This document shows, piece after piece, positions 7,391-43,402 of a stretch of DNA of 64,000 nucleotides. The DNA is from Acidimicrobiia bacterium (lineage in GTDB: Bacteria > Actinomycetota > Acidimicrobiia > Spongiisociales > ZC4RG35). The notes beneath the pieces were generated by a model. The model worked only from the letters and a program-made list of their open reading frames with translations, ran no database searches and was not told the origin of the DNA. Each line of letters starts with the position of its first letter. Positions within the stretch are counted from its first letter, which is position 1. Location: positions 1,312,001 to 1,376,000 of the forward strand of contig CBDBCY010000004.1 in assembly GCA_965203555.1 (NCBI GenBank), in the 5' to 3' direction. A program made the position numbers and the translations under genes.

Positions 7391-7400
7391 GGGAACACCC

Positions 7401-12026: not shown

Positions 12027-13609
12027 CCTTCGACCTTCTGATCCGCGACGGCCGCGTCTACGACGGGACCGGATCGTCGTGGATCCGGGCGGACATCGGC
12101 GTCGACGGGGACTCCCTTGTCGTGTTGCGAGGCGACACGAGCCACGTGGAGGCGGAGAGGGTGATCGATGCCAGCGGCCTGGCGGTCTGCCCGGGTTTCA
12201 TCGACATGCACGCCCATTCGACCATGGCGATCCTGGGCGATCCCGCCCACGAACCGAAGGTCCGCCAAGGAGTCACCACCGAGTTGATCGGCGTCGACGG
12301 GAACTCCTACGCGCCGTTCCCGTCGGACGCGGACCTCGACGGTTGGAGCATGATGAACGCCGGGCTCGACGGACGCCGCCCGCCGGGTCTCCGGTGGAGT
12401 TCGGTCTCCGAGTACCTCGATGTCTACGACCGGTCGGTGCCGGTGAACATCGCCTACGTGATCGGCAACACGCCGCTTCGGGTGGCGAGCGTCGGCTGGT
12501 ACGACGTCCAACTCACCGACGAGGACGTCGCCGCGCAGAGACGCTTGTTGCAAGAGGGCCTCGACCAGGGCGCCTTCGGTTTCTCAACGGGCCTGACCTA
12601 CCCGCCGGGGAGCTTCGCCGACATCGACGAACTGACCAAGTTGGCCGAGGTGGCGGCTCGCAATGGCGCCCTGCACGTGTCGCACGTCCGATACGGGGCG
12701 GGCGACGCCTTCACCGATCCATTCCACGAGGTGGTCGAGATCACCCGCCGCACCGGCGCCGCCTTACACATTTCCCACTACGCGTCGCTCTCCAAAAGAG
12801 ACGGCGAATTCCATGACCTGATCCGCCTGGTGGAGGACGCCCGCCGAGAGGGCCTCCAGGTCTCGTTCGACGCCTATCCGTACAACCAGGGCGGCACCCG
12901 GGCGCACGTGGCCCTCCCCGAATGGGTCCAAGACGGGGGGCCCCAAGTTCTCCTGGAGCATCTATCCAGTCGGGCGTCGCGAGCCAGGATGCGTGAGGAG
13001 ACAGATCCCCGGCAGAGTCGCTGGCGCAATCCTGCCGGTTGGCACCTCAGCGGATTCGAGAACCCCGACTACCGACAATTCGAAGGCGTCCCCCTCGACC
13101 GGATCGCCGCCGAGATGGGCCTGGACCCGCTGGATGCGCTCTGTGACCTTCTCCTGGCGGAGAACCTGGGCCTGTCGTATGTCGGCCACGACTCCAACAA
13201 CGTGGAAACGGTCCGCCACATCCTCAGCCACGACCTGTGCGCGGTCGGAAGCGATGCGCTACTGGTGGGCGACGCTCCCAGCCCCCGAACCTACGGCACC
13301 TTCCCCAGGATGCTCGGCGGCCTGGTGAGAGACGAAGGCTTGATGACCATGGAAGAAGCCATCCGCAAGATGACCTCCTACCCCGCCGGTCTGCTCGGCA
13401 TCACAGACCGAGGGATCATCCGGGACGGTGCCAAGGCCGACATCGTAGTGTTCGACTCCGCCACCGTAGGCAGTACGGCCACCCTTCACAACCCACGTCA
13501 GTTCCCCACCGGCATTCCCCACGTGATCGTCAACGGCATACCGGTGGTCCACAACCATCACCGGACCGACGCCACTCCAGGACAAGCGCTGAGAAGGCAG
13601 AGCACCTGA
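12023..13609 (+). CDS. N-acyl-D-amino-acid deacylase (D-aminoacylase) family
   Basis: PGFIDMHAHS, QGVTTE, STGLTYPPG, YPY, GSD, PRTYGTFPR, AIRKMTS.PA. Confidence 0.9.
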   Translation: MTFDLLIRDGRVYDGTGSSWIRADIGVDGDSLVVLRGDTSHVEAERVIDASGLAVCPGFIDMHAHSTMAILGDPAHEPKVRQGVTTELIGVDGNSYAPFPSDADLDGWSMMNAGLDGRRPPGLRWSSVSEYLDVYDRSVPVNIAYVIGNTPLRVASVGWYDVQLTDEDVAAQRRLLQEGLDQGAFGFSTGLTYPPGSFADIDELTKLAEVAARNGALHVSHVRYGAGDAFTDPFHEVVEITRRTGAALHISHYASLSKRDGEFHDLIRLVEDARREGLQVSFDAYPYNQGGTRAHVALPEWVQDGGPQVLLEHLSSRASRARMREETDPRQSRWRNPAGWHLSGFENPDYRQFEGVPLDRIAAEMGLDPLDALCDLLLAENLGLSYVGHDSNNVETVRHILSHDLCAVGSDALLVGDAPSPRTYGTFPRMLGGLVRDEGLMTMEEAIRKMTSYPAGLLGITDRGIIRDGAKADIVVFDSATVGSTATLHNPRQFPTGIPHVIVNGIPVVHNHHRTDATPGQALRRQST

Positions 13610-13668
13610 CCGGATCGGACTCGTAACGCTTAGAAGCGGTTCAGGGCCGGGCGCAGTCCGCGGTCTTG

Positions 13669-13976: not shown

Positions 13977-16900
13977 CTAGCTGCGGGACCGCGCCATGCG
14001 AAAACGCACCTGCTCTATGAGGGTCTCCCTGATTAGCTCTTGATGTTCTCTGAAGTTCAAAAACTGCGCTACCATGTCGTCAATCCGCATGTGTTGCCGG
14101 GTACGCAGCTTTGTGTACGGGTAGGGGCTCGCGGGTCTTGATGTCATCCATCACGGCTGACGCGTCGCTGAGGGCACTGAAATCGAAACCCAAAGGTAGT
14201 GCCTTCAAATCAGTGGCCTCTGCTTTGAGCATGCCGCCGCCAAGGTTTTTCCTGCCTGTGATTTCACGGTACAGCCAAACGAAGGACGAGTTCATATAGG
14301 CCCATAACCCGTAATGCAGTGGAGTTGCCCAGAGTTCGGGGGGCAAATACACCTCAACGGCACTGTAGGAGAATGCTCTGTGATCGTTGTAGGAGCAGTA
14401 GTAACGCTCCCCGATACCACGTGGCATTATGAGTGCTGGCACTTCCCTACCTATGGGAACAGAAGCGACGAGTCCCTCCGCTGATGTTGTGAAGAACGAT
14501 GCCATCTTGAGGATGACGGGGATCCTCGCTCCCTCCACATCCAGGTCTCTTTTCGGAAAATTGAGGCCTTGTCCTATGCGCATTCTGCTGGTGTCGTATC
14601 TTGAACGACTGTGGAGGTCATCAAAAATCTCCCTGAAGAAACCGGGCATTGCTATCACATGACCCCACTTTGACCGCTGCCTAGCCAAGATCTTCTTGGT
14701 TGGGTTTGTGGTCATGTCCTTGTCAGCAATGCTGACCTCAATGTTGCCGCTCGGCCTTGTGCTGAATAGGGTGATGATCGCGTTGATATTCTGGCTGTCG
14801 GTATCTGGAAAGAACTTGGCCGAGGTGTCGATGATATGGTGGAAGGCAAAACGCTCAAGCGAAAAGTCTTGAAACTTCTTTCCGTAATCTGTGCTCAGCC
14901 AAGCGTTTTGGGTTATGAAGCAACCACACCCAGTATCTCTCAGGAACTTTGCTGCACGCGCATAGAAGTAGATCAGAATGTCACTGCCGCGTGGAAGAGG
15001 GGCAGCCCAATCTAGCCTCACCTGGTTGCCGTAGGCATCTTTTTTCTTCGCCGTCATGAGGCTGTTCCTGGACTCGATGTATGGAGGGTTGCCGATTACG
15101 ATGTCGAACCCTTCGGTCAAATCGAACATGTACTTGGGATCGAACCAATCGGCGCTGGTGTTCTGGTTGTATCGGTCCCACTTGGCGATGCTGTCGGTGT
15201 GGTCCGGTGACATACCGAGGTGTCGCAGTTCTTTGGCCAGTGCGGTGCGAAGTTTCCGGTCTTCTCGGACTAGGGCTGCTTTCTTTTGCGGCGTGGTAGC
15301 GTGAAAATGCCGTTCGGTGTTGGCAGCCCATTTCCTGCGTAGGTCGACGGCGCGTGGACTAGCGAGTCTTTCTTGGCCTTTTAGCCCGATGAGGGAGTCC
15401 GCAGCGACGAACCTGCTTTCGAGGTTGGGTAGGGGTCGGATGCCGTAGTTGTCCTCAGGATCGCTGTTGGGTTGCTGTTCTATGGCTAGGGAGATGAACA
15501 TCCGTAGTTTGGCGATCTGGCAGGCGATGGGCTGTATATCCACCCCGTAGATACTGTTCTGGATGAGGTAGAGCTTGCGACCGAAGCCAGACTGGTACCT
15601 TTCGAATGCCTCGTTGATTGCCTGTAGCACCCTGTGGCGTTCGTCCTTGTCTTCGATGCCAAAGGCCTGACCCGCCCGGGATCCGGCCAGGCGTTGCTGG
15701 GTTTCCCGCCATGCCGTGTTGTCGGGGTCGAGTCTGCTCAATGCGAGGGTGATTCGGTGGAGAATGGCCATTGGGAAGGCTCCCGATCCCACAGCCGGGT
15801 CAAGTACCCTTATGTGGGCAATGTTCTCGATGAGCCTGTCTTGTTCACTAGTCATCAAAAGCGTGCGGGCATCGTCGATGTCGTCGGAGTAGTCGAGCAG
15901 ATAGCGGAGCCTTTCCTCCCAAAAGTCCTTGTCGTCGAAGTTGTCCTGGACGGTTTCTGTCCAGTAGGCGACCAGAGCCTCTGTGACCATGTAGTCCACA
16001 ACCTGTCTGGGGGTGTAGTAGGAGCCGGTCTGTCTACGGGCGGTTACCCGTGTTTCGGGGTTGAAGGCGGCAAGGAGGTTCTCGAACACCTTGCCCAACA
16101 GTTCGGGGTCGAGCGCTACATCCTGTTCTACCGGGGTGTTTTCCTCCACGGTGAACCGGTAACGGTCGAACAGGGGAATCAGTCCTTCCGAGCCGAAAAA
16201 CAGCCGGTTGGGCACCGAGAGAAGACCTCGATGGTCTGGGTTGTCGGAGAAGCAGTCGATCAGCCCTTGCCCATTGGTGGGGTGGCTCCTATCAAGACAG
16301 TCGAATAGTCCCCCATTGATGAATGGTGTCTCGGCAAACAGGGAGAGCAGGCGGTCAGGGTCGGCTATCTCGTCTTGATAGCGGTATAGGGAGAAGTTCC
16401 CGTTGGGATTGTTGTCGCTGAATCCGCGTTGCTCGATTTCGGTGTTGAGGGTGGCGAAGAACAGGTTCTGCAGGATTGCTCGGTAGTAAGAATCGCCGGT
16501 CTCCTGGTCATAGTCGGCAAGGAGGTCACCCACTACTGCTTCGTTGAACAGGTCGGCGTTGACCAGTCCTTTTTCCTTGATGAACCAGATGAACAGCAGG
16601 CGGGTAATGAGCCGGATAATGTGCTCTTCGGTTGTTGGTTTCACCGATGTGGGGAAGTTTGCCTGGTCGTCGGCGGCGTTCTCGAACCATCGGAACAGTT
16701 CCCGGTAGAACTGCTTGTTCAACTTTTCCGTGTCGAGGCAGTTGATCCAGGCGGTCAGCAGCCCGTCAAAATTCGCCCGGTTGTTGGTGGCCTGCATCCA
16801 TTCGAGTCGGTTATGGAGTGACAGTTCTCCGAGGATTCGCAAGTGGGCCTGATGGGGTTCCTTGGAGTTGATTTCCCTGATGAGGGACACCTTTCCGAGC

Positions 16901-17409
16901 ACATCGCGGTTTCCTGTGCGTTTGTCCGGTCGCCGGTCCATGAACGCGATGGTGAGCATCCCGGTTGCGGTGCGGAACAGCACGACGGTTGGTTGGCTGA
17001 GGCGTTTGTTGATCTCTCGGGCGAGTTTGGCGTACATGCCGCGGGGATAGGTTTTCTTCTTCAGATCCACTGCGGCGAATACGAAGCTACGGTTGACACC
17101 TATGTTGAATAGCTGGCCCGGCAGTGGTTGTTGGAATGGGAATTCTATTTCGGCATCAGTAATCTGGAAGAGAATCCGGACGGTGGGGTCATGTTCGAGG
17201 AATAGCTGTTCGGAGGTGGTGTTCCGGTTCTCGGTCGGGAACTGTTTTATGAAATCGGCAGCCTTTCCCGTCTGTTCCGGAGGTATGCGGTCGCTCCGAT
17301 AGCCAAGGATGGACAGGAGATCGGATGCCGCTTGGAAAAAGCCGTCCTCGGGGATCCGGTGCAGAGTGTCGTCGATTTGGCGGAGGAGTTCTACAGATGG
17401 TGCGGCCAT
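13977..17409 (-). CDS. Type IIG/Eco57I-like N6-adenine DNA methyltransferase with C-terminal target-recognition region; frameshift near 14100 (annotated frame stops at 14080)
   Basis: TGSYYTP, VLDPAVGSGAF (SAM-binding), GVDIQ, GFDIVIGNPPY. A shifted frame continues RQHMRIDDMVAQFLNFREHQELIRETLIEQVRFRMARSRS* to 13977. Confidence 0.85.
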
Positions 17410-17411
17410 GA

Positions 17412-20400
17412 TCAGAGACCGAGGGACAACGGGGAGATGATCAGCCAGCTCACCAAGTCAAAATCCTCGCCGGTCCGGGGGGTTTCGGAGCGGCGGGACA
17501 TCACAAAGTCCCGACCGCCGCCCACGGCTAAGCCTGCCATCTGGGTGGCGCCGTGCCGACGGTTTACATGTCGGATGACCGTTTCCAGCAAATTGTCGTA
17601 GAGTGCCATTTGACGGCCGTTGTCTGTGTGGGTGTTGAACTGGTCGCACAGGCGGCGGATGGGTTTGTCCTCACCAATCGCCACCATCTCGAATGCTTCT
17701 AGCACTTGGCGGGTGTTGGCACATCCGTACCTGATCCTCCTGTCATGCTGGACATACACCAAGTAGAAGGGATGCACCGGACTAGCGACACGCTGTCCGG
17801 TCTTGACCGCCTCTCGGCGTTGTTTTAGGACAAAGACCACTCCTGGCTGGACTCCGCTGGAGGTTTCGGCAACAGCGTAAAGGCCTTTGGGCGCCATCTT
17901 GAGCTCCTCCTGATTCTTCTCCAGATAGCGCAACAACTGAGTGAAGAAGTAGTCGAGGGTGAAGTCGGTCATGGTCGGAGTGTCGGTCAGGTCGTCCAGA
18001 TCAACGATCTCTTCTCGAAGCTTGAGGAGTTGCTCGTCTCGGAATGTCAATTCCAATTGGATGCCCTCCTCCGTAAGAGGGTCGCTATCGCCGGTTGCTG
18101 TCATGTCGGCCAGCACCATCCGGGCGCGGACCCGGTTCTCCAACCTCAGATATGCTTCCATGTCCTCGGTAGGCCAGAAATTCACCATCCGCACTGTCTG
18201 ACTGCGACTGCCGATACGGTCGATCCGCCCGAAGCGCTGTACCAGCCTCACCGGGTTCCAGTGGATGTCGTAGTTGAGGGTGGTGTCGCAGTCCTGCAGG
18301 TTTTGACCCTCAGATATGCAGTCGGTGCCGATTAGTAGGTCTATCTGAGGACTGTCCAGGCTGGTGCGGTTGCGCGCCCGGGGAGCGAAAGCCGTCAGGA
18401 TGGCGTGGTAGTTGTTCTCTCCCACAGTGGTGAGGGTGGCGTCGCCGGACACCATGGCCATGTTGAGACCCAGTTCGGCTGTTAGGTCCTCCAAGTTCTT
18501 ATAGAGGTATTCGGCGGTGTCCTTGAAAGTGGTGAACACCAGAATCTTGCGATTGGGCCGGCCATCACTGTCAATAGTCGGATTCAGGGCTTTCTGGCGG
18601 ATCACCTGCCTGACTTCTCTCAGTTTCCCATCTCGTTCGGGTGTCACCACCGCCACCTGTCGCCGCGCCGCGTCCAGAACGGCCCGGTCCAAAAGCAAAT
18701 CCTGCTGCCACCGATCCAGGTCCAACTGGCCGAGGTGGTAAGGGTTCCGGGCCCGGTTTACAAAGAACTCGTCGTCGTCCTCGTCCGCCTCCGGCAGGAC
18801 CTCCGCGGAAACCCCGTTCGGTGGGTGCTGTCGGACTTTGAACCGGTCGATGCGCTCCATCAGGTCGTCAATCTTCTTGACCGTCCGTTCCAAAGTCAGC
18901 GTGAGGGCCTTAGCGGAACTCTCCAAGCGTTTGAGGAAGTTGGTGCGGATCATCCCGATCAAAAACCTCTCCCGGTCGGCCTGGTTGAAATTCCGAACTT
19001 TTCTTTCCTCTTCCAGTTCTCTTTTGCGGGCCTCGTCGATTAGGTACTCCGACGGCTGGTAGATGGACAGTCCGAAGTTGTTGATCTGCTTGGCCAGATG
19101 GTCGTATGACAACTCCCCCCCGAGATCGGTGGGAGGGTGGCGGTTGTCCGGCGCCTCATGTGTTGGGAACCGGCCGATACGGTCGATCTCTCTGGTGTAG
19201 AAGCGTTCGATCTGGCGGCGGGAACGGGCAATGGACACAGCGTCCAGCAGGCGGAACACATCAGGACCCAGGTTCTCCAGAAGCTCCATTTTGTTCCGAT
19301 GAGCCTTGCCTGTGTTGTCGGTCTCCCACTTTTGGAACTTCTTCTGCGCCACGGCCAGCAGGCTGGAGATGCTTCCGATTCCCAGGCTGTCCCTAAAAGT
19401 GTCGGCCCGTCTCTCTGTCATCAGATAAATCTGGTTCCGCAAGTCGATCAGTGAGGTGTTGACCGGGGTGGCGGACAGCATCAGCACCTTGGTTTGGGCA
19501 CCTTGGGCGATCACTTCATCGACCAGTCTCTGATACCGCTGCCCCTCGTGGTTCCTAAAGTTGTGGGACTCGTCGATCACTATCAGATCGAAGTTGCTCC
19601 AGTTGAAACGGGACAGGTCAACATCTCCTACCCGGCCCTTCTCTCGAGACAGATCCGTGTGAGACAACAGTGTGTACCCGAAGCGGTCCTCCGGGAAGGG
19701 GTTGTCCGAGTATGAGTTGTACGCCGGATACAGAGACCAGTTGTCACGCAACTTCCGAGGGCAGAGCACCAACACCCTCTGGTTTCGAAGCTCGAAATAC
19801 TTGATCACCGCCAGCGCGGTGTAGGTCTTGCCCAAACCCACGCTGTCGGCCAGGATGCACCCGTTGTGCCTCTGCAACGCCGAGATCACGCTGTGAACCC
19901 CGTCCTGCTGAAACTCGAACAGAGCCTTCCAAACTTGGGTGTCATACAGATGGATACTGTCGAACCGGTCCTGGTCGGCCAGTCGGGTGTCGATCTCGTC
20001 GCGGAACAACTCGAACAGAGTCTTGAAATAGACGAACTCGGGAGCATGCTCCTTCCCCACCCGACCCAAAGCTGCCAGCACCTGCGCCTTGGCGTCGCGG
20101 GTCAGCTCATCATCGCTCCACAACTCGTCAAACCAACCCGCCAACTCTCCTCGACTCGAAGGATCGGCAGTGGCCAGATTGATCTCCAGATTCGGTTCGG
20201 CACCGCCCCCCAGGCCCCGCTTGGTGAAATTGGAACTACCCACCACCGCCGCGCCCTCACCGTCCGGCCCATCCGCCAGATACATCTTCCCATGCAAAAA
20301 CCCCGGCCTGCCCACCGCCCGCACTCCCACAGAATCGCGGTCAATCCAATCAGCGCAACGAAGAGCAAGAAACTTCTGACGCAACACCACGCCGGGCACA

Positions 20401-20657
20401 AGCCCATCCTCAGTCAACTTGAAGAACCGAGGATCCTCCTCAGCAGGGTCCAACTCATCCACCGACGTCGGATCACCGAACAAGAAGCGCGTCTCGCCCA
20501 CCCCACCCAAGACATCCTCCAACAACTCAAACCCATAAATCGTGAAAAACGCCGACACCACCCGAAACAGGTCTGCATCATGCAACGTCCTCCGCAAGTA
20601 GTCCACCACCGCCCGGTCACGATTGTCCAGAATGTGCTCGTAAACGGACCTGCTCAC
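17412..20657 (-). CDS. PLD(HKD)-nuclease-SNF2-family helicase fusion
   Basis: N-terminal LHGKMYLAD..GSSNFT; ILADSVGLGKT, DESH, SATP, SEGQNLQ, QRFGRIDRIG. GTG 20657 follows an AAGGA SD; ends 2 bp before the MTase start. Confidence 0.9.
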   Translation of the reverse strand: MSRSVYEHILDNRDRAVVDYLRRTLHDADLFRVVSAFFTIYGFELLEDVLGGVGETRFLFGDPTSVDELDPAEEDPRFFKLTEDGLVPGVVLRQKFLALRCADWIDRDSVGVRAVGRPGFLHGKMYLADGPDGEGAAVVGSSNFTKRGLGGGAEPNLEINLATADPSSRGELAGWFDELWSDDELTRDAKAQVLAALGRVGKEHAPEFVYFKTLFELFRDEIDTRLADQDRFDSIHLYDTQVWKALFEFQQDGVHSVISALQRHNGCILADSVGLGKTYTALAVIKYFELRNQRVLVLCPRKLRDNWSLYPAYNSYSDNPFPEDRFGYTLLSHTDLSREKGRVGDVDLSRFNWSNFDLIVIDESHNFRNHEGQRYQRLVDEVIAQGAQTKVLMLSATPVNTSLIDLRNQIYLMTERRADTFRDSLGIGSISSLLAVAQKKFQKWETDNTGKAHRNKMELLENLGPDVFRLLDAVSIARSRRQIERFYTREIDRIGRFPTHEAPDNRHPPTDLGGELSYDHLAKQINNFGLSIYQPSEYLIDEARKRELEEERKVRNFNQADRERFLIGMIRTNFLKRLESSAKALTLTLERTVKKIDDLMERIDRFKVRQHPPNGVSAEVLPEADEDDDEFFVNRARNPYHLGQLDLDRWQQDLLLDRAVLDAARRQVAVVTPERDGKLREVRQVIRQKALNPTIDSDGRPNRKILVFTTFKDTAEYLYKNLEDLTAELGLNMAMVSGDATLTTVGENNYHAILTAFAPRARNRTSLDSPQIDLLIGTDCISEGQNLQDCDTTLNYDIHWNPVRLVQRFGRIDRIGSRSQTVRMVNFWPTEDMEAYLRLENRVRARMVLADMTATGDSDPLTEEGIQLELTFRDEQLLKLREEIVDLDDLTDTPTMTDFTLDYFFTQLLRYLEKNQEELKMAPKGLYAVAETSSGVQPGVVFVLKQRREAVKTGQRVASPVHPFYLVYVQHDRRIRYGCANTRQVLEAFEMVAIGEDKPIRRLCDQFNTHTDNGRQMALYDNLLETVIRHVNRRHGATQMAGLAVGGGRDFVMSRRSETPRTGEDFDLVSWLIISPLSLGL

Positions 20658-21371
20658 AGGGTCATCCTTTGACCTGCCCTGAACCCGCCCACGAACTCGT
20701 CGGGAGACACCAACGGGGACCACCATCTGAAGTTGTCAAGTGTTGGGCTGGCCAGAGATGCCTTCCAACCGCATGGCCCGGTCCACCCAGCAGCTTTCGG
20801 CAACTGATGACCCATAATCGCGGCTCGGACCGGCGCGATGACGTCCCACATGAGAGCACGGGATGCCCGAGGAGATGCCTCAACTGTCTGACGGACCGTC
20901 CGCCTAACGTCCATCACCCACTTCTTTAGCGACTGTTCGTTCTTCAACGAAAGTGGATATTACCCCCCCGTGTCCCAACTTGTGACAGGATCTTGTCTCA
21001 CCACCTACTGAGAGGCTCACCCTAAATTAGATCTATGACCACACAGCTTTTGATCGCTGGTGCCGTTCAACGCAGGTTCGAGTCGTTCGCCAAAATGCGT
21101 GGGAAGAGCCTCGGCGCCGATGGGGAAGGCTTGACTTCGTGCTGGGTGGTGGGAGATACGGAACCCGAACGGCATCGTCAAGGACCGAGCCAAATGGTCA
21201 CTCCAAGGCGGATATTTGGAAGATAGGTGATTCCCCAGGGCGGCGGACGAGGAGATCATGTTAGGTGCTCCCTTGCACTTGGTGGCGGGCTTCACGATCC
21301 GTGCCCTACGCTGAATCAGACCGAACCGGAAAGAGTGGGCGCAGCGGGTGGGGTGGCGAAGCCTCCGCTTT

Positions 21372-21570
21372 GTTTGGCGCGCCATCCTTCCCTTGGGCAC
21401 CCAGATCTTCAATTGCCATCAATCCGCCGTGAGCAAAGAACCAACCGAGGGACTGAACAAATCTCATCAAGCGCATCAACGACCAGCATTACGGTTCCCT
21501 AACTACCAGAGCGCCACCCAAGTCTCATCCGCTTGCTAACCCAGCCGGTAGCTCCCCTCACCGCCACTTC
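21372..21570 (+). pseudogene. Degenerate ISL3-family transposase C-terminal relic
   Basis: Reads QIFNCHQSAVSKEPTEGLN and, after a frameshift, LIKRI..NY; resembles the ISL3 tail pattern SNGPTEAINNLIKRIKR.AFGF.NF.NY. Confidence 0.6.
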
Positions 21571-21641
21571 CCTGTGGACCGATGGTTCCGTACTCAACGA
21601 CAGCAAAACGCTCCCCAGTTGTGCCGTTGGGCTTCGTTTCC

Positions 21642-22313
21642 CTATAGATGGTTCGGAATAGCAAGATGAACAACATCACGCTCCGTGTTCGAGATGCACC
21701 TGTCGAACCTCAATCGTGGATGTGGCATCTCAAGAGGTCCCACCATCCGCGCCTTATTGTAAAAGGCACTAAGGATAAAATCCATGAAACTATGTGGCGT
21801 CAAGGCTGCCGTAGCTGGGATCCGACAATGTTTGTATTGACCCAAAGTAAGGTGACTTTTGGGATGTGGCATTTTTGTTTGGCCACTGGTGTCACCCTTA
21901 AAGTCGAACCTTACCGGAACAGTCACGGTCCTTTTGTCAATTACATCCGCGTAGATCGGATCACTCCCATATATTTCTGGATCGTTCTGATACTCCAATA
22001 GGTCAGGTGCTGGTAAAAAAGCTAGTCGATGCCTAAGCAGGGCCTGATCAGACACCACGTACCTCATCTGTACCATAGCACCATCTAACATAAGAAGATT
22101 GAAGGACCGCTGCGACCGCTGCTCATAGTACGCCTGCGCATAGTCAAGATTCTTTAACATAGCGTTGTTCCAGTTGGGATGCTGGATACAATAGATGTTG
22201 GAGGCAGTTTGGGTTTCAAAGGCAACGTTCTGGTCATCAACCATACCCGCCAACACCAGACACCGCGTAATCTCACGTATTTCTCTAAGAAGGAGGCTGC
22301 GGTCAGAAGCCAT
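21642..22313 (-). CDS. DUF2290 domain protein (partner of the upstream helicase; anti-phage)
   Basis: HRLAFLPAP, PVRFDF, HPKSHLTLGQYKHCRIP; ATG 22313 after GAGGAG, overlapping the helicase end; low GC. Confidence 0.8.
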   Translation of the reverse strand: MASDRSLLLREIREITRCLVLAGMVDDQNVAFETQTASNIYCIQHPNWNNAMLKNLDYAQAYYEQRSQRSFNLLMLDGAMVQMRYVVSDQALLRHRLAFLPAPDLLEYQNDPEIYGSDPIYADVIDKRTVTVPVRFDFKGDTSGQTKMPHPKSHLTLGQYKHCRIPATAALTPHSFMDFILSAFYNKARMVGPLEMPHPRLRFDRCISNTERDVVHLAIPNHL

Positions 22314-24483
22314 TCTCCTCCTCAGCCTTGTAAAGGATACGCCGCAGTGCTTCCAATAGGTCCTGATCGAAATCTTCAATGTAATACCTATTACGCTCAA
22401 TATCTTCAACGAATCTGGCCATATTCTGGCGGTTCAGCTCGATGCCTTGACGTTCAGAGCTGGACATATCCCTGTGAACTCGAGTAATGGCTTCAAGCTC
22501 GCTAGTAGTGGGGTATCGGAATGACAATCTGAAGTCTGCACTTCGGATGCGTTCATACTCTTGCGCCAAGACATCCATGCCTAAACCAACGCCAGTGATG
22601 CGGACCCAAGCTTTGCTCCGTGTGATAGCGGTAAACAGAATGTTTCTCAATCGCGATGCATTGACGTTTCCTGTGGTGTGGCATTCGTCAGCATTCACGA
22701 CGTACACCATTGCAGCTTCATTACCTTTGGCTCTATAGATACCAGTACACGCAATGGAATCAGGTTGCCAAAAGTGATCAGGCTGTGTGGTAACTCCCGC
22801 ATGATGGTTGGGGATTCCTAAAGCAAGAAGGGCGTCGCGGACTACACCCAGCTTTCTCCGCGCCGTGGTAGGATTCGGACTAATGACAATGATGTCCTCC
22901 AAACCTAACTCATCTTTGGAGAGGTTATCCCTAATTGCCCCTGCAACCCACGCCGCCTGCATCGTCTCATTCGTGAATGTCTGCAACTTGATTAGATCGT
23001 CCACAGGTGAGTGTTCTTCGAGAAAAAGCGGGCTCGTTTCGGCTGTTCTCCTCAATGTAACATCGCTACCCAGCTCTAGGGTCCCGCCTGCCACCCTATA
23101 GCCTATCTCTAACCAAAGATGTGGATGATCAAACATCTGTACTAACCCCGAGCTATACCGGCCAAGATGTTTCCGATAGATTCCAAAGCCGAGGCCGTGG
23201 GCCGTTACTAGCAAAGGCCGTGAGTTCCGATAGCATTTCTCCAAAATGATGTCCTGTTTTGGAGACAAGGATCCTCCAATGTCTGTGAACTCTACGCGAG
23301 GCCTGCCTCCTTCTTCGCCGAATATGTCCTCGGGTGGTAATGTAGATGAATCTGTCAGGTTTTGGAGTTCGTCGTAAGCGTAAACTAAGCGTTTTGGTGG
23401 TTTAAGCACTTCATAGCACATCCGCAAGAAACTGGCGGGCAGATCCTGAGCTTCGTCTATGAGGATTGCGTCGTACAGATGCCGAGGGTCTCCGACTTTG
23501 TCCAGGGCCGCCCTCACAGCGCCATCAAACGCTCTTGTCGTGCCATACCGCTGCTTTGCCTTATAAAAGTCCAAATACTCAATATCATTCTCACGGCAGA
23601 ATTCGTAATATATGCCCCACCGCTCAGACGAACCCGGAGCACCCCAGGAGTTGACAATCCGAAGTTGGTCCCAGCGCGGTTCCTGGCCAATCTGTTCTAT
23701 GACAAAATTGTTGATTAGGCGATAAAAATACCCTTTCAGGGACCGCGTGTGGAAGGTCACAGCTATCTTCCAATGCGGGTTCTGGGCATGCAAATAGGCT
23801 GCCTTCAGTGCTAGGACTATCGTCTTACCGGAACCAGCCAGCCCCCTGATTCTTTGTACTCCGTTCACAGTCTCGATTACAGCACTATGTTGTTGCTGAT
23901 CTAAGACAGCGATGGAATCCTCAAGTCTTTGCAACCTTGATCCTCTAGAGGTTTTGGCAGTGAGCAACCTGGGCTGTCGTGGCTTCCGCAACGCCGTTAC
24001 GCTTTGCACAGCCGATAGGGTTAACCGATACAACGATTCTGAGAGGTTTGAAACCTCTCTAGATTTCTCCGCCAGCCAGGGCACCAAAGATGCTCGAGTG
24101 AGCACGGGATGAGAGGTTGAGGATGGAACAGAGGTTACAGCGGGGGCGTATGTAGCTGTATGGATAGGCACTGCCAACTTGCGGCTAGAAACTAACTCTC
24201 TATTCCTAAGTAGGCGGGCGTGGAGCATGTTGTAACCATGATCCTGTCGATCCGAAGAGCCTGTGAGATCAGTGCCTTCAATCAAATCAAAGCACACTAA
24301 ACCGTGTTCTGGAGAAACCAACAATGCATCAATCGTGTGGTGGCCGAGAGATGTGGGTAAGACCGGATAACCGAGAGAGAGTTGTCCCTGCAAGGAAGAC
24401 GAGACTAAGGTGTCAACCAATGATTCGCTAGCCACTGGTTTGCCATTGATGCCATTTGCTACAACAAGAGAGGGCGTATCCAT
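22303..24483 (-). CDS. Superfamily-1 (UvrD-like) helicase with N-terminal NERD-like region; helicase+DUF2290 defence pair
   Basis: QRIRGLAGSGKT, ILIDEAQD, AYDELQ, CYRN, IYRAKGNE, LFTAITRSK; low GC. Confidence 0.85.
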   Translation of the reverse strand: MDTPSLVVANGINGKPVASESLVDTLVSSSLQGQLSLGYPVLPTSLGHHTIDALLVSPEHGLVCFDLIEGTDLTGSSDRQDHGYNMLHARLLRNRELVSSRKLAVPIHTATYAPAVTSVPSSTSHPVLTRASLVPWLAEKSREVSNLSESLYRLTLSAVQSVTALRKPRQPRLLTAKTSRGSRLQRLEDSIAVLDQQQHSAVIETVNGVQRIRGLAGSGKTIVLALKAAYLHAQNPHWKIAVTFHTRSLKGYFYRLINNFVIEQIGQEPRWDQLRIVNSWGAPGSSERWGIYYEFCRENDIEYLDFYKAKQRYGTTRAFDGAVRAALDKVGDPRHLYDAILIDEAQDLPASFLRMCYEVLKPPKRLVYAYDELQNLTDSSTLPPEDIFGEEGGRPRVEFTDIGGSLSPKQDIILEKCYRNSRPLLVTAHGLGFGIYRKHLGRYSSGLVQMFDHPHLWLEIGYRVAGGTLELGSDVTLRRTAETSPLFLEEHSPVDDLIKLQTFTNETMQAAWVAGAIRDNLSKDELGLEDIIVISPNPTTARRKLGVVRDALLALGIPNHHAGVTTQPDHFWQPDSIACTGIYRAKGNEAAMVYVVNADECHTTGNVNASRLRNILFTAITRSKAWVRITGVGLGMDVLAQEYERIRSADFRLSFRYPTTSELEAITRVHRDMSSSERQGIELNRQNMARFVEDIERNRYYIEDFDQDLLEALRRILYKAEEENGF

Positions 24484-24810
24484 GGGAGGAGTCTGGAGAG
24501 GAGTAGTCGGGTGTGGTCGATTCGTTTGGTGTGCAGTCTACCCCTTTGAATCGGGGTGCATCACTCTAACGGAGTTGCTTAGCGTGACCCGAGAAGCGGC
24601 AGGTCTGCCAACAACCTTCCAAGGTCGATCCCGGCCGCCACGGAAGCCGTGCAGACACCACCTTGTAGCTCAGAGGCTGTTTTACGACTCACAAGAATGA
24701 GACCTTCAACAATGTGCCTGAGTCAACTGATGCCAATAGAGGATAAGGAAGCTCATCTGCCTCCTCCCCCGATCATCCTTGCATTTCTGGACTCTTATGC
24801 CATAATTGCA

Positions 24811-25980
24811 ATGATGATCCCGCGTCGTCTACATTCACATTTGCAGGATCTCCTGTCGGAGTATCCCGCCGTTGCCTTGATCGGGCCCCGGCAGGTGGGG
24901 AAAACAACCCTGGCCTGGCAGATCGCCAACGCAGTGGACTCTGTCTATCTCGACTTGGAATCACCGTCCGACTTGGCGAAGCTGTCCGACCCCGAGCTAT
25001 ATCTGGCCGACCATCAGCACAGGTTGGTCATCCTGGATGAGGTGCATAGGGCACCGGACCTATTCCAAGCCCTTCGCGGACTCATAGATCGGGGAAGGCG
25101 CAGCGGGCAAGGAGTGGGGCGGTTTCTTCTGCTGGGGTCCGCCTCGATGGAGCTGCTGCGGCAGTCGGGCGAGAGCCTGGCCGGTCGCATCGCCTACCTT
25201 GAACTCGGTCCGCTGGGCGTGACGGAGGTGGGATCAAACGACTGGTCGCACCTTTGGGTGCGAGGCGGATTCCCCAACAGCTTCCTGTCGGTTGACGACC
25301 GCCGAAGCTTCCTATGGCGACAGAACTTTATCCGGACCTATCTCGAGCGCGATATTCCCCAGTTCGGTCGGCGTATCCCCGCCGAGAGGCTCAGGCGATT
25401 CTGGGTGATGCTGGCCCATGCCCAGGGGGGGCTGCTCAACGCGGCGGCACTGTCACGCGGCCTCGGAGTGGACGGCAAGACCGTCTCCCGCTACTTGGAC
25501 CTGATGGCCGATCTGCTGCTGGTGCGGCGCCTGCCACCTTGGCGCATTAGCACAGGTAAGCGTCTTGTCAAGTCCCCGAAGGTCTATGTCCGCGACAGCG
25601 GGATCGTGCATGCGCTGCTGGGTCTGACCTCCAAGGAGGACCTTCTCGGTCATCCCGTAGTCGGGGCAAGCTGGGAGGGGTTCGTCATCGAGACCCTCGT
25701 GTCACGGCTGCCGGATGGAAGCGAAGCGAGCCACTACCGCTCGTCTGGTGGAGCGGAAATCGATCTGGTCGTGAAATTGCCCGGGCGTCGCCCGTGGGCG
25801 ATCGAGGTGAAGAGAAGCCTCAACCCCCGGCCGCGCAGGGGATTCCACAGCGGCTGCAGAGACGTGAGCCCGGAGAGCAAATTCGTCGTCTATCCCGGAG
25901 CAGAGCGTTACAGGATCACACCGGATACCGAAGCTGTCCCGCTGCTTGACCTGGCGCAAGACTTGAGCCGAGCAACATAG
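24811..25980 (+). CDS. AAA_14 ATPase with DUF4143 domain
   Basis: GPRQVGKTT, ILDEVH, LLGSAS, ESLAGR, RGGFP, KRLVKSPKVY.RDSG, EIDL..IEVK. Confidence 0.9.
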   Translation: MMIPRRLHSHLQDLLSEYPAVALIGPRQVGKTTLAWQIANAVDSVYLDLESPSDLAKLSDPELYLADHQHRLVILDEVHRAPDLFQALRGLIDRGRRSGQGVGRFLLLGSASMELLRQSGESLAGRIAYLELGPLGVTEVGSNDWSHLWVRGGFPNSFLSVDDRRSFLWRQNFIRTYLERDIPQFGRRIPAERLRRFWVMLAHAQGGLLNAAALSRGLGVDGKTVSRYLDLMADLLLVRRLPPWRISTGKRLVKSPKVYVRDSGIVHALLGLTSKEDLLGHPVVGASWEGFVIETLVSRLPDGSEASHYRSSGGAEIDLVVKLPGRRPWAIEVKRSLNPRPRRGFHSGCRDVSPESKFVVYPGAERYRITPDTEAVPLLDLAQDLSRAT

Positions 25981-26003
25981 TCTTGGGAGCGTATCTCCCA
26001 AGA
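25981..26003 (+). terminator. Hairpin immediately after the AAA_14 gene
   Basis: TCTTGGGAG-CGTAT-CTCCCAAGA, perfect 9-bp stem. Confidence 0.55.
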
Positions 26004-26028
26004 TGCTGTTGAAGACTGCGGAGGTAAG

Positions 26029-26111
26029 TAGGGTTTGGCCCGTCCCCTTCAATCCGAACCCATACAGTAGAGGAGACAATGGCCGAGATGCCCTGCCCAG
26101 CGGAGAACGGA
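26029..26111 (+). repeat. Diverged copy A of the cyclophilin promoter, 5'UTR and first 11 codons
   Basis: TAGGGTTTGGCCCGTCCCCTTCAATCC..ATACAG..AGGAG..ATGGCCGAGATGCCCTGCCCAGCGGAGAACGGA aligns with 28352-28436. Confidence 0.85.
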
Positions 26112-27443
26112 CTGGACTCGTTGATCGCCGCACTGAAGGCGGATCACGCCGAACGGAACCCGCGGTCGGCCGCCGCGTTTGAGTCTGCTCTACGGGTCAT
26201 GCCGGGTGGCAACTCGCGCACACAGCTCTACTTCGAGCCGTTTCCCTTCTATGTCGATCATGCCGAGGGTCCGTACCTCCACGATCTGGACGGCCATCGC
26301 TACCTGGATGTCGTCAATAACTACACCAGCCTGATCCACGGCCATCCCGACTCCGAGACCGTCCGGGTTATCGCCGATCAGGCTGCCCGCGGCACGGCCC
26401 ACGCCGCGCCGTCACCCTCGGAGATTGAACTGGCCAAGGAGATCACCGGTCGGGTGAACAGCATGGAGATGGTACGGTTCACCAACTCGGGCAGCGAGGC
26501 GGTCTTGTACGCCATTCGACTCGCTCGACATGTCACTGGCCGCGCCGACGTGATCAAGGCAGAGGGCGGGTATCACGGAGGTGCTGAGTCCGTGCAGGTG
26601 AGTGTGAAGCGCCTGGGCCTCGATGAACCGGCGGCCCTGCCCGAGGAGGGCGTCCCCGAAAGTGTCGCCAGCGCCACGCATGTGATCCCCTTCGACGACA
26701 TCGACGAAGCCGTTCGATTGATCGGTGCCCGCGGCCCGGCATCGGCGGCGCTCATCGTGGAACCGATCCAGGGATTCGGTGGTGGCCTGAAGCCGCCGGA
26801 CGGCTACCTGGAGGCGATCTCCAAGGCGGCCTCGGACACCGGAACGCTGGTGATCCTCGATGAGATCCAGACTCTCCGGTACGCATACGGCGGCATCCAA
26901 CAGACGCTCGGCCTCACCCCCGACCTCACCGTCTTGGGCAAGCTGATCGGCGGCGGCCTCCCGGTTGGCGCTTTCGGCGGCTCGGAGGAACTGATGTCGG
27001 CGACCGACCCTCGAAGCCCGGGAGTGATGACCCAGAGCGGCACGTTCAACGCCAATCCCCTAACGATGTCCGCGGGCGTCCACGCACTTCGAAAGCTAAC
27101 CCCGGAAGCCATCGACCGCCTCAACTCCAACGGCGACGACCTGCGCGCCTGGATCAACGCCGAGTGCACGGAGCGCGGCCTGCCGCTGGTCGCCGGAGGA
27201 TACGGGAGTCTCCTGCAACTACATGTGGGGTCCGACCTTCCGACCAGCTACCGGCAGGCCAAGGCGCGGCCAATCGAGCCACTGACGGCGCTGTTCTACC
27301 TCCTCATGGAACGCGGCGTTTTCACCGCACCGTCGAGAGTCATAGTGGCGCTCTCAACCGCGATGCGCGAAACACAACTCGACGAACTCCGCGAGGCCAT
27401 TGCATCGTCGCTCGACGTTTTGTCAAAAGTAATGGCTGATTAG
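26079..27443 (+). CDS. Class-III PLP aminotransferase (glutamate-1-semialdehyde aminomutase-like) with cyclophilin-derived N-terminus
   Basis: MPGGNSR, DLDGHRYLD, RFTNSGSEA, GGYHG, ILDEIQT, LGKLIGGGLPVGAFGG, SGTFNANP. Confidence 0.9.
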   Translation: MAEMPCPAENGLDSLIAALKADHAERNPRSAAAFESALRVMPGGNSRTQLYFEPFPFYVDHAEGPYLHDLDGHRYLDVVNNYTSLIHGHPDSETVRVIADQAARGTAHAAPSPSEIELAKEITGRVNSMEMVRFTNSGSEAVLYAIRLARHVTGRADVIKAEGGYHGGAESVQVSVKRLGLDEPAALPEEGVPESVASATHVIPFDDIDEAVRLIGARGPASAALIVEPIQGFGGGLKPPDGYLEAISKAASDTGTLVILDEIQTLRYAYGGIQQTLGLTPDLTVLGKLIGGGLPVGAFGGSEELMSATDPRSPGVMTQSGTFNANPLTMSAGVHALRKLTPEAIDRLNSNGDDLRAWINAECTERGLPLVAGGYGSLLQLHVGSDLPTSYRQAKARPIEPLTALFYLLMERGVFTAPSRVIVALSTAMRETQLDELREAIASSLDVLSKVMAD

Positions 27444-27512
27444 GCTGGTCGCCTCTCGAGGATCAAGTCAGTCCGGCGCTGCTGCCTCACCGCAGTCAGT
27501 CGAAGCCGTGGG

Positions 27513-27992
27513 TTACGGTCTTCTCCTGACTGGCGGGTCGGTGGCCCTCAGGCTTGATCCGAGTATTGGGTCCCGTGTCTTCAGTTCTGGGTAAGAGAGA
27601 AGTCGCCGTCCCCGGGTCATGAGCGCTTCAACGCCATGGGCTATACAGATCGCCACCATCCTGGCGTCGTGGACGACTCCCCCGATCACTCTGGGGCGTT
27701 TCACGAAACGGCCCAGTATCCGAGGAAAGTCCTCGGTCTCTCGTATCAGCCTCATTGAAGGAGAGGATGTCCAAGCGGCGAGTTGACGCCATGATTGCTC
27801 TGGACTCGTGGCCCTGTCCTTCCAGATGCGAGGGTTGGTAACAACGCTGTGGAACTCATAGCAGCAGGGCCAGGGAATGGCCCATGCATCGTTTCCTTCC
27901 GCCAACCCGTGTATGATCGATGCGGCTGCCTCATGGTGTCTCGACTCTCGGCGGTGTGCATACACAAGTGTGTTCGTATCGACGGCGATCAT
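27513..27992 (-). CDS. vapC: VapC PIN-domain toxin (last acidic motif apparently scrambled)
   Basis: MIAVDTNTLVYA, YEF..VVT.P, HDA; ATGA overlap with the antitoxin gene. Confidence 0.85.
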   Translation of the reverse strand: MIAVDTNTLVYAHRRESRHHEAAASIIHGLAEGNDAWAIPWPCCYEFHSVVTNPRIWKDRATSPEQSWRQLAAWTSSPSMRLIRETEDFPRILGRFVKRPRVIGGVVHDARMVAICIAHGVEALMTRGRRLLSYPELKTRDPILGSSLRATDPPVRRRP

Positions 27993-28237
27993 CGGGACTC
28001 GGGCTCGCCGTAAATGACCTGTCGGAGATCCTGCCATGGATACATCCCCAAGGGGTCCCGCCCGCCCGAGTCGCCCACGCTGTGGTCGGGTAGCCGGTAA
28101 GGCTGGCGGGGAGTCGGGTTGGAGAGCACGTGGTGAAGTCCTTCTTCAATCACGGCGCGCAATGGGCGTCCGGTCCGCCGCGCGTGCCGCTTGGCGCGTG
28201 CCAGCAATTCGTCGTGGATATCAACCGTCGTCTTCAC
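27989..28237 (-). CDS. vapB: VapB-type ribbon-helix-helix antitoxin
   Basis: VKTTVDIHDELLARAKRHA..TGRPLRAVIEEGL; directly upstream of the PIN gene. Confidence 0.85.
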   Translation of the reverse strand: MKTTVDIHDELLARAKRHARRTGRPLRAVIEEGLHHVLSNPTPRQPYRLPDHSVGDSGGRDPLGMYPWQDLRQVIYGEPESR

Positions 28238-28351
28238 GAGACCCAAACTTAGCCATATAGAGGCTCTCACATTGACCATATCACTGGGGAGGAAACGCGA
28301 ACCTCAAAGACATGACCCCTCCGGCATGCCGCAGGAAACAGCGGGCGTGAT

Positions 28352-28436
28352 TAGGGTTTAGCCCGTCCCTTCAATCCCAGATACAGCAATAAAGGAGCCT
28401 TCAGTGGCCGATACGCCTTGCCCGGCGGAGGACGGA
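28352..28436 (+). repeat. Copy B: cyclophilin promoter (TGn-TAGGGT-like -10), SD and first 11 codons
   Basis: TAGGGTTTAGCCCGTCCCTTCAATCC..ATACAG..AAGGAG..GTGGCCGATACGCCTTGCCCGGCGGAGGACGGA. Confidence 0.8.
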
Positions 28437-29000
28437 TCGAGTCCCGTCCGTCGCAAATTCCCGAAGCCACCCCCCATGTGTATTGATGCGGCCAAGTCCT
28501 ACACCGCCGTGATGGAAACGTCAATGGGGACGATGACCATCGCGCTTGACGCCATCTCGGCTCCCCGCACCGTGAACAACTTCGTGGTGCTGGCCCGCTA
28601 CCACTACTACGACGGCGTGATCTTCCACCGCATCATCAAAGGCTTCGTCTGCCAAGGCGGCGATCCCACCGGCACGGGCCGGGGCGGCCCCGGCTATCGC
28701 TTCGCCGACGAGTTGCCCAAACCGGGACGCTACGAAGTCGGCTCGCTGGCCATGGCCAACGCCGGGCCCAACACCAACGGCAGCCAGTTCTTCATCATCA
28801 GCGGGCCCCATGGCCGCCGACTCCCGCCGCAGTACTCGCTGTTCGGCAAGGTGGTGAAAGGCCTCAACGTAGTGGACGCTATGCAAAAGGTAGCCACCGA
28901 CCGCAACGACCGTCCGCTGACCGACGTGACGATCAACTCGGTGACGATCACCGAGTCAGACGGCCGACGGTGGAGAAAGCGCTCAATCTCTCGGGGTTGA
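28404..29000 (+). CDS. Cyclophilin-type peptidyl-prolyl cis-trans isomerase
   Basis: APRTVNNF, YYDGVIFHRII.GFVCQGGDPTGTGRGGPGY, LAMANAGPNTNGSQFFI, YSLFGKV. Confidence 0.95.
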   Translation: MADTPCPAEDGSSPVRRKFPKPPPMCIDAAKSYTAVMETSMGTMTIALDAISAPRTVNNFVVLARYHYYDGVIFHRIIKGFVCQGGDPTGTGRGGPGYRFADELPKPGRYEVGSLAMANAGPNTNGSQFFIISGPHGRRLPPQYSLFGKVVKGLNVVDAMQKVATDRNDRPLTDVTINSVTITESDGRRWRKRSISRG

Positions 29001-42867: not shown

Positions 42868-42910
42868 CCACCTCGCCAACGGGATCGGGAGCGGAGTTCA
42901 GACCGAGAAG

Positions 42911-43402
42911 TCAGAGTTGAACGGACTCGTCGACGATGCCCAGTTGCTTGGCCCAGGACAGCTTGTCGGCCAGCGAGTAGTACTCCACCAGCTTGCCGTC
43001 CCGGACGCGGGCGAACGACATGCCGTCAACCTGAATCTTCTGACCGGCTGCGCCGTGCTCGAAGTGGGCGCCCTGCTGGGTGGCGTTGAAGGTCCACTTG
43101 GAAGCCACGGTGTCTCCGTCGGCCACGATCATGTTGAAGGTGGTCTGACCGTCCGGATAGGCGTTGCCCAACGCGATCAGGAAGTCCGCGTAGCCGTCCC
43201 GCCCGGGGCTGCGCACCGGGACATTGCGAATCACCACGTCGGGGTGTACGTACTCGTTTACCAAGGCCCGCATCCGGCCTTTCCACGAATCATCGGGCGG
43301 GTAGGGAAAGTCCCTCTCCTGACCCACCATGAACTCGACGAAGACCCGCCGGGTCTCCTCGGTGTCCCCGTCCGGATTTCCTTCGGGTAAAACAACAGGC
43401 AT
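42911..43402 (-). CDS. SnoaL-like/ester-cyclase (NTF2-fold) protein, paralog 1
   Basis: VHPDVV, AYPD, VADGDTVA..W, RDGKLVE, QLG. Confidence 0.85.
   Translation of the reverse strand: MPVVLPEGNPDGDTEETRRVFVEFMVGQERDFPYPPDDSWKGRMRALVNEYVHPDVVIRNVPVRSPGRDGYADFLIALGNAYPDGQTTFNMIVADGDTVASKWTFNATQQGAHFEHGAAGQKIQVDGMSFARVRDGKLVEYYSLADKLSWAKQLGIVDESVQL

Follow-up and report, generated by a model that had tools for sequence, protein, structure and literature searches.

An aminotransferase gene that appears to carry the 5′ end of a neighboring cyclophilin gene in an Acidimicrobiia bacterium

The locus and its direct repeat

The window analyzed here is a 64,000-nucleotide (nt) stretch of an Acidimicrobiia bacterium genome (designated G000; stretch G000:C4:1312001-1376000), which we compared with the genomes of 16 congeners (designated by G-numbers). 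In this window, a gene for a class-III aminotransferase (AT) begins with what appears to be the upstream region, leader, and first codons of a gene for a cyclophilin-type peptidyl-prolyl isomerase (PPI), and an intact PPI gene lies downstream of it (Table 1). Positions 26003 to 26111 align with 28326 to 28436 as a two-copy direct repeat of ~110 nt (MAFFT and repeat finding); the ~85-bp repeats that a preliminary description of this DNA had placed at 26029 to 26111 and 28352 to 28436 are thus real and slightly longer. When either copy was searched against the whole 3.42-Mb genome with sensitive blastn, the only match was the other copy, in an alignment of 115 columns (E = 2.3e-12) at 73.0% identity. 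An 18-nt core, TAGGGTTTRGCCCGTCCC, occurs twice in the window versus 0.11 expected occurrences. Homology between copy 1 and the PPI upstream regions of congeners extends back to 25985. The N-termini read as first described (MAEMPCPAENG for the AT and MADTPCPAEDG for the PPI, the latter from a GTG start), and the copies are separated only by the body of the AT (Aminotran_3), a PIN/VapC gene, and a minus-strand VapB-like open reading frame (ORF) that overlaps the latter, as had also been stated.

Table 1. Features of the AT-PPI region, in window coordinates
Feature	Position	Strand	Basis
D-aminoacylase-like amidohydrolase, native upstream operon partner of AT	12023..13609	+	NF006560 E 3.4e-67, below cut-off
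Degenerate 5′ end of native AT (by eye, codons 1 to ~20), in its original place behind amidohydrolase	13606..13665	+	Comparison with G005; blastn
Low-GC island of defense-like genes between amidohydrolase and chimera	14080..24483	-	Domain search, GC
AAA_14/DUF4143 ATPase gene, next to copy 1 on its upstream side; relatives align from ~residue 40	24649..25980	+	Domain search, synteny
Copy 1: upstream region, TAGGGT box, 5′ leader, AGGAG, ATG, and codons 1-10, all derived from PPI and placed ahead of AT	25985..26111	+	blastn/alignment; collinear with AAA-ATPase, leader, and PPI of G006 (24777-26111, 86.3%)
Chimeric AT, 454 amino acids, MAEMPCPAEN in place of native MT; second in-frame ATG at 26088	26079..27443	+	PF00202 E 1.7e-47
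Recombination joint CGGA, common to PPI (GAC GGA, codons 10-11) and native AT (ACC GGA, codons 2-3)	26108..26111	+	Homology switch
PIN-domain VapC-like toxin gene; likely start ATG at 28002, overlapping vapB-like stop	27513..28037	-	PF01850 E 2.7e-7
VapB-like antitoxin candidate, 96 amino acids, overlaps PIN gene	27989..28279	-	No family match; homologues beside PPI in G008, G011, and G013, fragment in G007
Copy 2: PPI's own upstream region, leader, and first 11 codons	28319..28436	+	Alignment with congeners
PPI, GTG start, 198 amino acids	28404..29000	+	PF00160 E 2.3e-41
Luciferase-like monooxygenase (LLM), then ABC ATPases	29036-30037 (LLM)	-	ORF/domain survey

Origin of the leader and N-terminus

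PPI orthologues, 89 to 96% identical and aligned from residue 1, were found in 15 of the 16 congeners. The series TAGGGTT...CCGTCCCTTCAATCC...AAGGAG...GTG GCC GAx ACx CCx TGC CC precedes and starts the PPI gene at all 14 congener loci with upstream DNA, and in G033 as well; the count leaves out G015, where the locus is cut at a contig end. Ahead of genes other than PPI, the leader was not found in the 16 congeners. The motif P-x-x-D-G-[ST] near the PPI N-terminus was present at 31 of 32 more distant Acidimicrobiales loci and in none of six native ATs, the pattern of conservation and absence that the preliminary description had anticipated.

AT orthologues (82 to 90% amino acid identity) occur in seven congeners: G002, G004, G005, G007, G008, G011, and G012. 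All seven start with ATG/GTG ACC/AAC GGA/GCA CTG/TTG GAC (an M[TN][GA]LD-type start, with GCA in G002 and TTG in G011) directly behind an amidohydrolase stop codon (...AGGAGGTGAAC ATG; stop TGA, 2 nt, ATG), and none has a PPI-like start. The G000 AT, by comparison, has 454 amino acids versus 446 and lies 12.5 kb from the amidohydrolase gene. Because all AT orthologues lack a PPI-like start while PPI loci carry the leader and N-terminus, the G000 AT is the deviant partner. These comparisons indicate that the AT carries a captured PPI 5′ end and not the other way round, and they bear out the earlier claim that the AT had taken over the PPI leader and N-terminus.

Several other features of the PPI gene and its leader were noted. 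Just past the AAA-ATPase stop codon, at the left edge of copy 1 (25973 to 26011), there is an inverted repeat of 17 nt with 82% complementarity and a 5-nt loop, and a GGGAG...CTCC element resembling it precedes the PPI gene in several congeners. The leader was considered as a riboswitch-like element and rejected, as its predicted fold (alifold -6.3; z-scores of +0.06 and +1.4) was not more stable than shuffles; no Rfam family was found between 25.5 and 29.1 kb. The G014 assembly breaks within the PPI gene, with residues 1 to 74 at one contig end and 58 to 193 at another (C27 and C42; L082 and L083).

The joint

In blastn comparisons, homology of the window to PPI loci stops at 26111, and homology to AT orthologues starts at 26105 in seven of seven genomes. 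PPI genes read ...GAG GAC GGA TCx at this point, native AT genes read ATG ACC GGA CTG GAC, and the window reads ...GAG AAC GGA CTG GAC. Because the parents share CGGA, PPI codons 1 to 10 are fused in frame to AT codon 3, with 4 nt of microhomology at the joint. The preliminary description had assigned the first 11 codons to the PPI; the in-frame capture stands, with the correction that only 10 codons are from the PPI and that codon 11 (GGA) is common to both parents. The joint was found in none of the 16 congeners, and degenerate DNA patterns specific to the junction had no match in the metagenome or genome contig collections. We consider it very probable that the AT captured the PPI 5′ end at this CGGA joint.

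The native AT start and the upstream interval

Compared with G005, the relic of the native AT start has CTG in place of ATG, an in-frame TAA, and indels. It lies 12.5 kb upstream of the chimera and is recognizable to approximately codon 20, with blastn homology reaching 13665. Three congeners—G006, G010, and G007—have a shorter AT stub with another breakpoint (GGACTG/TTCCCAACC, the slash marking the breakpoint), and G003 has yet another. From these differing stubs behind the amidohydrolase gene, we infer that the AT was ancestrally coupled to the amidohydrolase and was lost or displaced repeatedly. After loss of the AT start, the G000 amidohydrolase frame runs on for three more codons (window 13598 to 13609) and stops at the TGA that formerly overlapped the AT ATG; the G010 amidohydrolase end reads as in G000, and that of G006 likewise stops at this TGA. 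The preliminary description had viewed the AT as foreign cargo. This view does not hold, since the AT is a native neighbor of the PPI gene in 7 of the 16 congeners and its decayed native start is still present in the window.

An 11-kb island separates the AT stub from the AAA-ATPase gene, with a GC content of 49 to 59% versus 62 to 69% in the flanks. Its genes code for a PglX-like methyltransferase and for two helicases, one SNF2/DrmD-like and one UvrD-like. The island is absent from the 16 congeners, in which the search gave only three short matches at unrelated places. More generally, the amidohydrolase-to-PPI interval is a hypervariable slot, with different DNA in almost every species.

Two parental arrangements

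Gene order was mapped with L for the left block ending in the amidohydrolase gene, T for AT, K for the AAA-ATPase gene, V for vapBC, P for leader plus PPI, and A, B, and C for right-hand blocks. The order is L-T-P-A-B in G002, G004, and G012. G005 has this order too, with T and P separated by a second, 218-nt copy of the amidohydrolase 3′ end (L075, 8044-8260), apparently a relic of an earlier duplication or rearrangement. G008 reads L-T-K-V-P-A, and G011 reads L-T-K′-VapB-P-A. G006 and G009 read L-stub-K-P-B′-C, without T, V, or A; G003 reads L-K-12 kb-P-B′-C; and G010, G013, and G016 read ...A-B-P-C. The order in G007 is L-stub-11 kb-(149 nt of B end)-VapB′-P-T-A-B-C, and the G000 window reads L-stub-island-K-leader::T-V-P-A-B-C. 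In 6 of the 16 congeners, AT precedes PPI, with both genes on one strand.

These maps place the two sides of the joint with different relatives. On the left side of the joint, G000 and G006 run collinear across K and the leader as far as PPI codon 10 (Table 1). The character states CCCC, TTTGG, and CCCTGCCC in copy 1 are common to the G006 and G009 leaders, and copy 1 has GTTGAAGAC in common with the upstream region of G003. Right of the joint, ~45 nt that follow the AT stop codon match G008 and G011, as do the vapBC genes, and the flank upstream of copy 2 matches G011.

G007 differs from the other AT-bearing genomes in that its AT lies downstream of the PPI gene, with only 25 nt of the amidohydrolase 3′ end before it (L067, 8454-10400; composite position 18123), and this AT has an in-frame deletion of ~30 amino acids and a C-terminal frameshift (612-amino-acid ORF). 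This makes G007 a second case in which AT was rewired to PPI, one that is decaying. PPI plus leader occupies two chromosomal positions in the genus, either before block A or between B and C (window 28319-29000 versus 42727-42913; loci of G013, G010, G016, and G007). Because 149 nt of the B end survive as a relic ahead of PPI in G007, either the PPI gene or the 14-kb A-B block moved.

A discordant tract left of the joint

Identity rankings at three unlinked loci place G000 nearer to G008 than to G003 and G006. At the first locus, identity was 81% to G008 and 82% to G007 versus 76 to 80% to G003/G006; at the second, 84% to G008 versus 80%; and at the third, 82, 77, and 80% to G008 versus 73 to 77%. 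The right flank (47 to 64 kb) ranks similarly, with 89% identity to G002 and 88% to G008, G012, and G004 versus 84% to G003, G006, and G013. From approximately -3 kb (left of the window) to 13.6 kb, the preference is reversed (88 to 93% to G006, G003, G013, and G010 versus 80 to 85% to G008), and further left this preference was not seen. The K gene is 90% identical to those of G003 and G010 versus 86% to that of G008. In FastTree phylogenies, a background tree based on a single 5.2-kb locus placed G000 as sister to G008 (support, 1.0), while a tree of window positions 2910 to 8551 grouped G000 with G006 and G003 (support, 0.991); the tree of block A placed G000 near G008, with branching not settled.

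The DNA left of the joint thus appears to belong to a tract of ~29 kb whose phylogeny is at odds with that of the genome background, and the pattern would fit import of a G003/G006-like tract that ended in PPI codon 10 or 11 and was sealed into the resident AT. The G003/G006-like part comprises approximately -3 kb to 13.6 kb, the K gene, and copy 1, set against a G008-like background, an assignment that draws on few loci, with G006 itself mosaic and the island donor unsampled.

Two further segments were noted. Left of the window, ~4.4 kb at G000:C4:1292112-1296550 (L186, 112-4550) is 97% identical to G003:C1:593979-599700, at an unrelated position, versus a background of ~78%, which suggests a recently exchanged mobile segment. 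A 1.16-kb repeat at 58515 to 59676 is probably an insertion sequence; elsewhere in G000 it recurs twice at 100% and once at 95% identity, G003 has three copies at 93%, and in G008 copies lie at contig ends.

Reality, age, and spread of the chimera

Four Logan contig sets bear on whether the structure is real. A 10,446-nt contig in X1 matches 24500 to 28691 with no differences and spans both repeat copies; it is not counted as independent because it may come from the source sample. X2, from the same study as X1, has pieces of the locus with no differences, none listed as bridging 26.0 to 26.2 kb, and was not used. An 8,416-nt contig from a coral metagenome of another study (X3; 25321-27401, 179 differences) and a 2,799-nt contig from a sponge metagenome of a third study (X4; 24798-26829, 186 differences) both bridge the joint with no gaps, at ~91% identity to the window.

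Four of 26 close AT homologues examined (19 matches and 7 cluster members) are chimeric at the same position: P0090 (MAEMPCPAENG/LDSLIA), P0002 (MPCPAENG/LDSLIA; from an 8416-nt Logan contig, probably that of X3), P0088 (MPETPRPSEDG/LDSLIA), and P0094 (MAETPRPAEDK/LDSLIA). These variants come from ENA, JGI, and Logan data. The other 22 comprise 20 with native MTGLD-type starts and variants and 2 with unrelated N-termini (P0017 and P0093). Among metagenome contigs, one close AT locus was found; it is of the native type and G008-like. The captured tags differ at no more than 4 of 11 positions, and the bodies are 86 to 93% identical. Because the tags vary, and because the Cys conserved in PPI is replaced by Arg in two variants, the tag residues can be said to drift. 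E3 is common to all full-length chimeras (P0002, called from M4, is without this position), which is compatible with a single origin. In the AT tree, chimeras are interleaved with the natives P0092 (93.9% identical to G000) and G011 and are not monophyletic; this interleaving of the bodies points to later recombination.

The preliminary description had raised an assembly chimera as the possibility that would undermine its claim, and the genome may indeed be a metagenome-derived assembly. An assembly chimera or collapsed repeat nevertheless has a vanishingly small probability. The copies, at 73% identity over ~110 nt, are too diverged to mislead an assembler, a Logan contig repeats 24500 to 28691 without differences, contigs of two other studies bridge the joint, and four other proteins are chimeric. 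On these comparisons, the chimera is neither an assembly artifact nor recent. The two explanations first offered for the divergence of the copies, an origin in different strains or an old event, are both borne out, the former by the two haplotypes and the latter by the ~91% identical contigs and the diverged chimeric alleles.

AT function and the captured expression signals

The AT matches PF00202 with 162.4 bits versus a gathering cut-off of 30.5, and all aligned AT sequences keep VLGKLIGGG, the lysine of which we take to be the pyridoxal phosphate-binding site. An assignment as glutamate-1-semialdehyde aminomutase was considered and rejected, since the protein resembles these enzymes and falls below the cut-offs of the HemL equivalogs (NCBIfam). 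The AT has an uninterrupted ORF, and the diverged chimeric alleles, too, have kept their full length. The ratio of nonsynonymous to synonymous substitution rates (dN/dS) was 0.11 to 0.17 between the G000 AT and six intact orthologues and 0.12 to 0.20 among native genes, values which indicate that the AT body is under purifying selection.

In P0088 and P0094, M1 is the only Met in the first 40 residues; therefore, the captured start codon is the available start in these variants. In G000, the two possible ATGs give candidate N-termini of MAEMPCPAENGLDSL... or MPCPAENGLDSL.... Copy 1 is without the conserved TGAT before TAGGGT. Transcription may start at the captured TAGGGT region, whose putative promoter role is suggested by conservation. 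A look-up of RNA runs listed none that contains the locus.

Downstream of the AT, the PIN domain of the VapC-like protein scored 31.6 bits (cut-off, 23.6), and its TIGR00028 match scored 73.3 bits (cut-off, 73.6). Profile searches gave no family match for the 96-amino-acid VapB-like ORF. Stabilization of the insertion by this putative toxin-antitoxin module, as first suggested, is conjectural.

Proposed origin and alternatives

On balance, and with the route included in the statement, we lean toward illegitimate recombination of two haplotypes at CGGA via one-sided homology. The left parent would have had the order amidohydrolase, dead AT stub, intervening DNA, AAA-ATPase gene, leader, and PPI, as in G006 and G009, and the right parent the order AT, vapBC, leader, PPI, LLM, and ABC, as in G008 and G011. 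A diverged homologous tract would have recombined by homology at its left end, and its other end, inside PPI codon 10 or 11, would have been sealed illegitimately into AT codon 2 or 3, as in homology-facilitated illegitimate recombination. The AT would thereby have become an independent, separately initiated gene, and because the right parent brings AT, vapBC, leader, and PPI, the PPI gene would have stayed intact downstream, behind a leader of its own (copy 2). Which side was resident is suggested by the G008-like background, on which the AT-bearing side would be the recipient.

The preliminary description had proposed that a 2.3-kb cassette entered the PPI gene and restored it with its own copy. 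No integrase or transposase domains were found in seven neighboring proteins, no terminal inverted repeats were found around 26.0 to 28.4 kb, and no attC was found; a mobile-element cassette is therefore unsupported. Because the foreign part appears to be the left tract and not the AT-vapBC segment, the PPI gene was probably never interrupted, and the entry and restoration of a housekeeping gene is likewise not upheld. Stated as a recombination, that proposal is the mirror image of ours, in which the resident had an AT-less AAA-ATPase-leader-PPI arrangement and the incoming DNA carried AT (codon 3 to end), vapBC, leader, and PPI. An illegitimate left joint in resident PPI codon 10 or 11 and a homologous right crossover would then have resupplied the PPI and placed the AT behind resident signals. 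The final structure would be identical, the AT-less arrangement exists in G006 and G009, and LLM-ABC occurs right of PPI at that position only in AT-bearing genomes, so that the right flank could have come in jointly with AT and PPI. We nonetheless regard this mirror image as quite improbable, given that the three unlinked loci and the right flank (47 to 64 kb; G008 88%, G003/G006 84%) place G000 nearer to G008 and the AT-bearing group, that the discordant part is the left tract, and that cassette or mobile-element features are lacking.

We think tandem duplication unlikely. The ancestor would have had the order amidohydrolase-AT-(AAA)-vapBC-leader-PPI, and everything between AT codon 3 and PPI codon 10 would have been doubled in tandem, with the chimera as the join point; the upstream native AT would then have decayed to the stub at 13606 to 13665, and the left copy would have been remodeled by deletions, island insertion, and recombination. 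The required same-strand order is found in 6 of the 16 congeners, a native AT stub survives at its original site, G007 (25 nt of amidohydrolase end before AT) and G005 (218-nt duplicate) look like duplication relics, and promoter capture by duplication is documented in the laboratory in the available text of two reports (PMC6614815, PMC11111574). Yet vapBC and the AAA-ATPase gene are single copy, only the ~110-nt repeat is doubled, and the AT stub lies 12.5 kb away (later loss being possible). The AAA-ATPase-leader junction is moreover the same as in AT-less G006, with the same arrangement in G009, and was therefore inherited rather than formed by a private deletion. The left part is also discordant with the background in phylogeny, and this route would need several extra events. 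It is highly improbable that the leader is a portable promoter element that inserts before various genes. The leader is highly conserved, and PPI plus leader lies at different places in different congeners; however, G000 has only two copies, the leader stands only at PPI in the 16 congeners, it has no Rfam match, stable fold, or terminal repeats, and the repeat includes 10 PPI codons, which would be unexpected for a promoter element.

Several observations weigh against recombination of two haplotypes in G000, or against use of the captured signals, and should be set beside the evidence above. The left tract of G006 is itself discordant with the G006 background in the tree. G008 and G011 have a K gene or fragment between AT and vapBC; because the window has none there, the scheme calls for one or more additional deletions or for a parent that was not sampled. 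No donor carrying the 11-kb island was found among the 16 congeners. In the AT tree, the native P0092 is the partner of P0001 and the native G011 that of P0094; G000 may have acquired the chimera ready-made. The spacer between the Shine-Dalgarno sequence and ATG is 3 nt in copy 1 versus 6 nt in PPI, and the second ATG (26088, codon 4), which the gene caller chose in P0002, may be the start used. Consensus scans found neither a sigma-70 promoter nor a terminator, so that use of the captured promoter is putative, and the AT could instead be transcribed by read-through from the AAA-ATPase gene, which ends 98 nt before it.

Significance

Across the genus, the AT is wired to PPI in three ways: as upstream neighbor, as downstream neighbor (G007), and as in-frame fusion. 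It is conceivable, if rather doubtful, that the PPI 5′ module is a preferred rescue site and that, after the island cut the AT from its operon, selection kept the fusion, with the AT under PPI-type control at a housekeeping level. Were this so, it would imply a selected functional or regulatory link between AT and PPI beyond adjacency. Natural bacterial chimeras are rarely documented complete, and at this locus the parental arrangements, exact joint, decayed start, and diverged descendants are all visible. Recombination of two haplotypes, if correct, suggests that an orphaned gene in a hypervariable, defense-island-rich interval can survive via the promoter region, ribosome-binding site, and start codon of a neighbor. 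The locus may also provide a dated, testable case of illegitimate recombination shaping the genomes of uncultured Acidimicrobiales that are found in coral and sponge metagenomes as well.

Comparison with known systems

The event is of a known kind and reveals no new mechanism. Homology-facilitated illegitimate recombination joins DNA at 3 to 10 bp (de Vries & Wackernagel 2002; Prudhomme 2002; Meier & Wackernagel 2003; summarized in PMC6382021, as far as the available text of that summary extends). The AT locus resembles it in its putative one-sided homology (the discordant left tract), its 4-bp microhomology joint, and its diverged donor DNA. Transformation uptake and RecA-dependent integration, features of that process, would be hypothetical for the AT locus, and the anchor side is suggested by phylogeny at few loci. 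Tandem duplication can also activate transferred genes (PMC11111574, available text). The gene order that a join-point fusion needs, AT before PPI on one strand, is there, and the codon 10-to-codon 3 join is as expected; on the other side, no duplicated body is left, and the left flank is of another haplotype. With integrons and promoter-supplying cassettes, the locus has in common a gene served by signals of its insertion context (here putative), but it has no integrase, attC/attI, or cassette boundaries, and the repeat holds housekeeping coding sequence.

A related promoter-capture case, which PMC6614815 cites, is reportedly the Cit+ duplication from the long-term evolution experiment. In Escherichia coli, promoter capture has activated silent transferred genes, at breakpoints with 3 to 12 bp of microhomology (PMC6614815, in the available text of that report). 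In both settings, a gene without usable signals is joined to those of its neighbor at microhomology, which is 4 bp at the AT locus. The E. coli cases in that text are laboratory events under or before selection and mostly transcriptional fusions, in contrast to the AT, which appears to be a natural, old, in-frame translational fusion that includes the ribosome-binding site, start codon, and 10 codons of its neighbor and is represented by at least five alleles.

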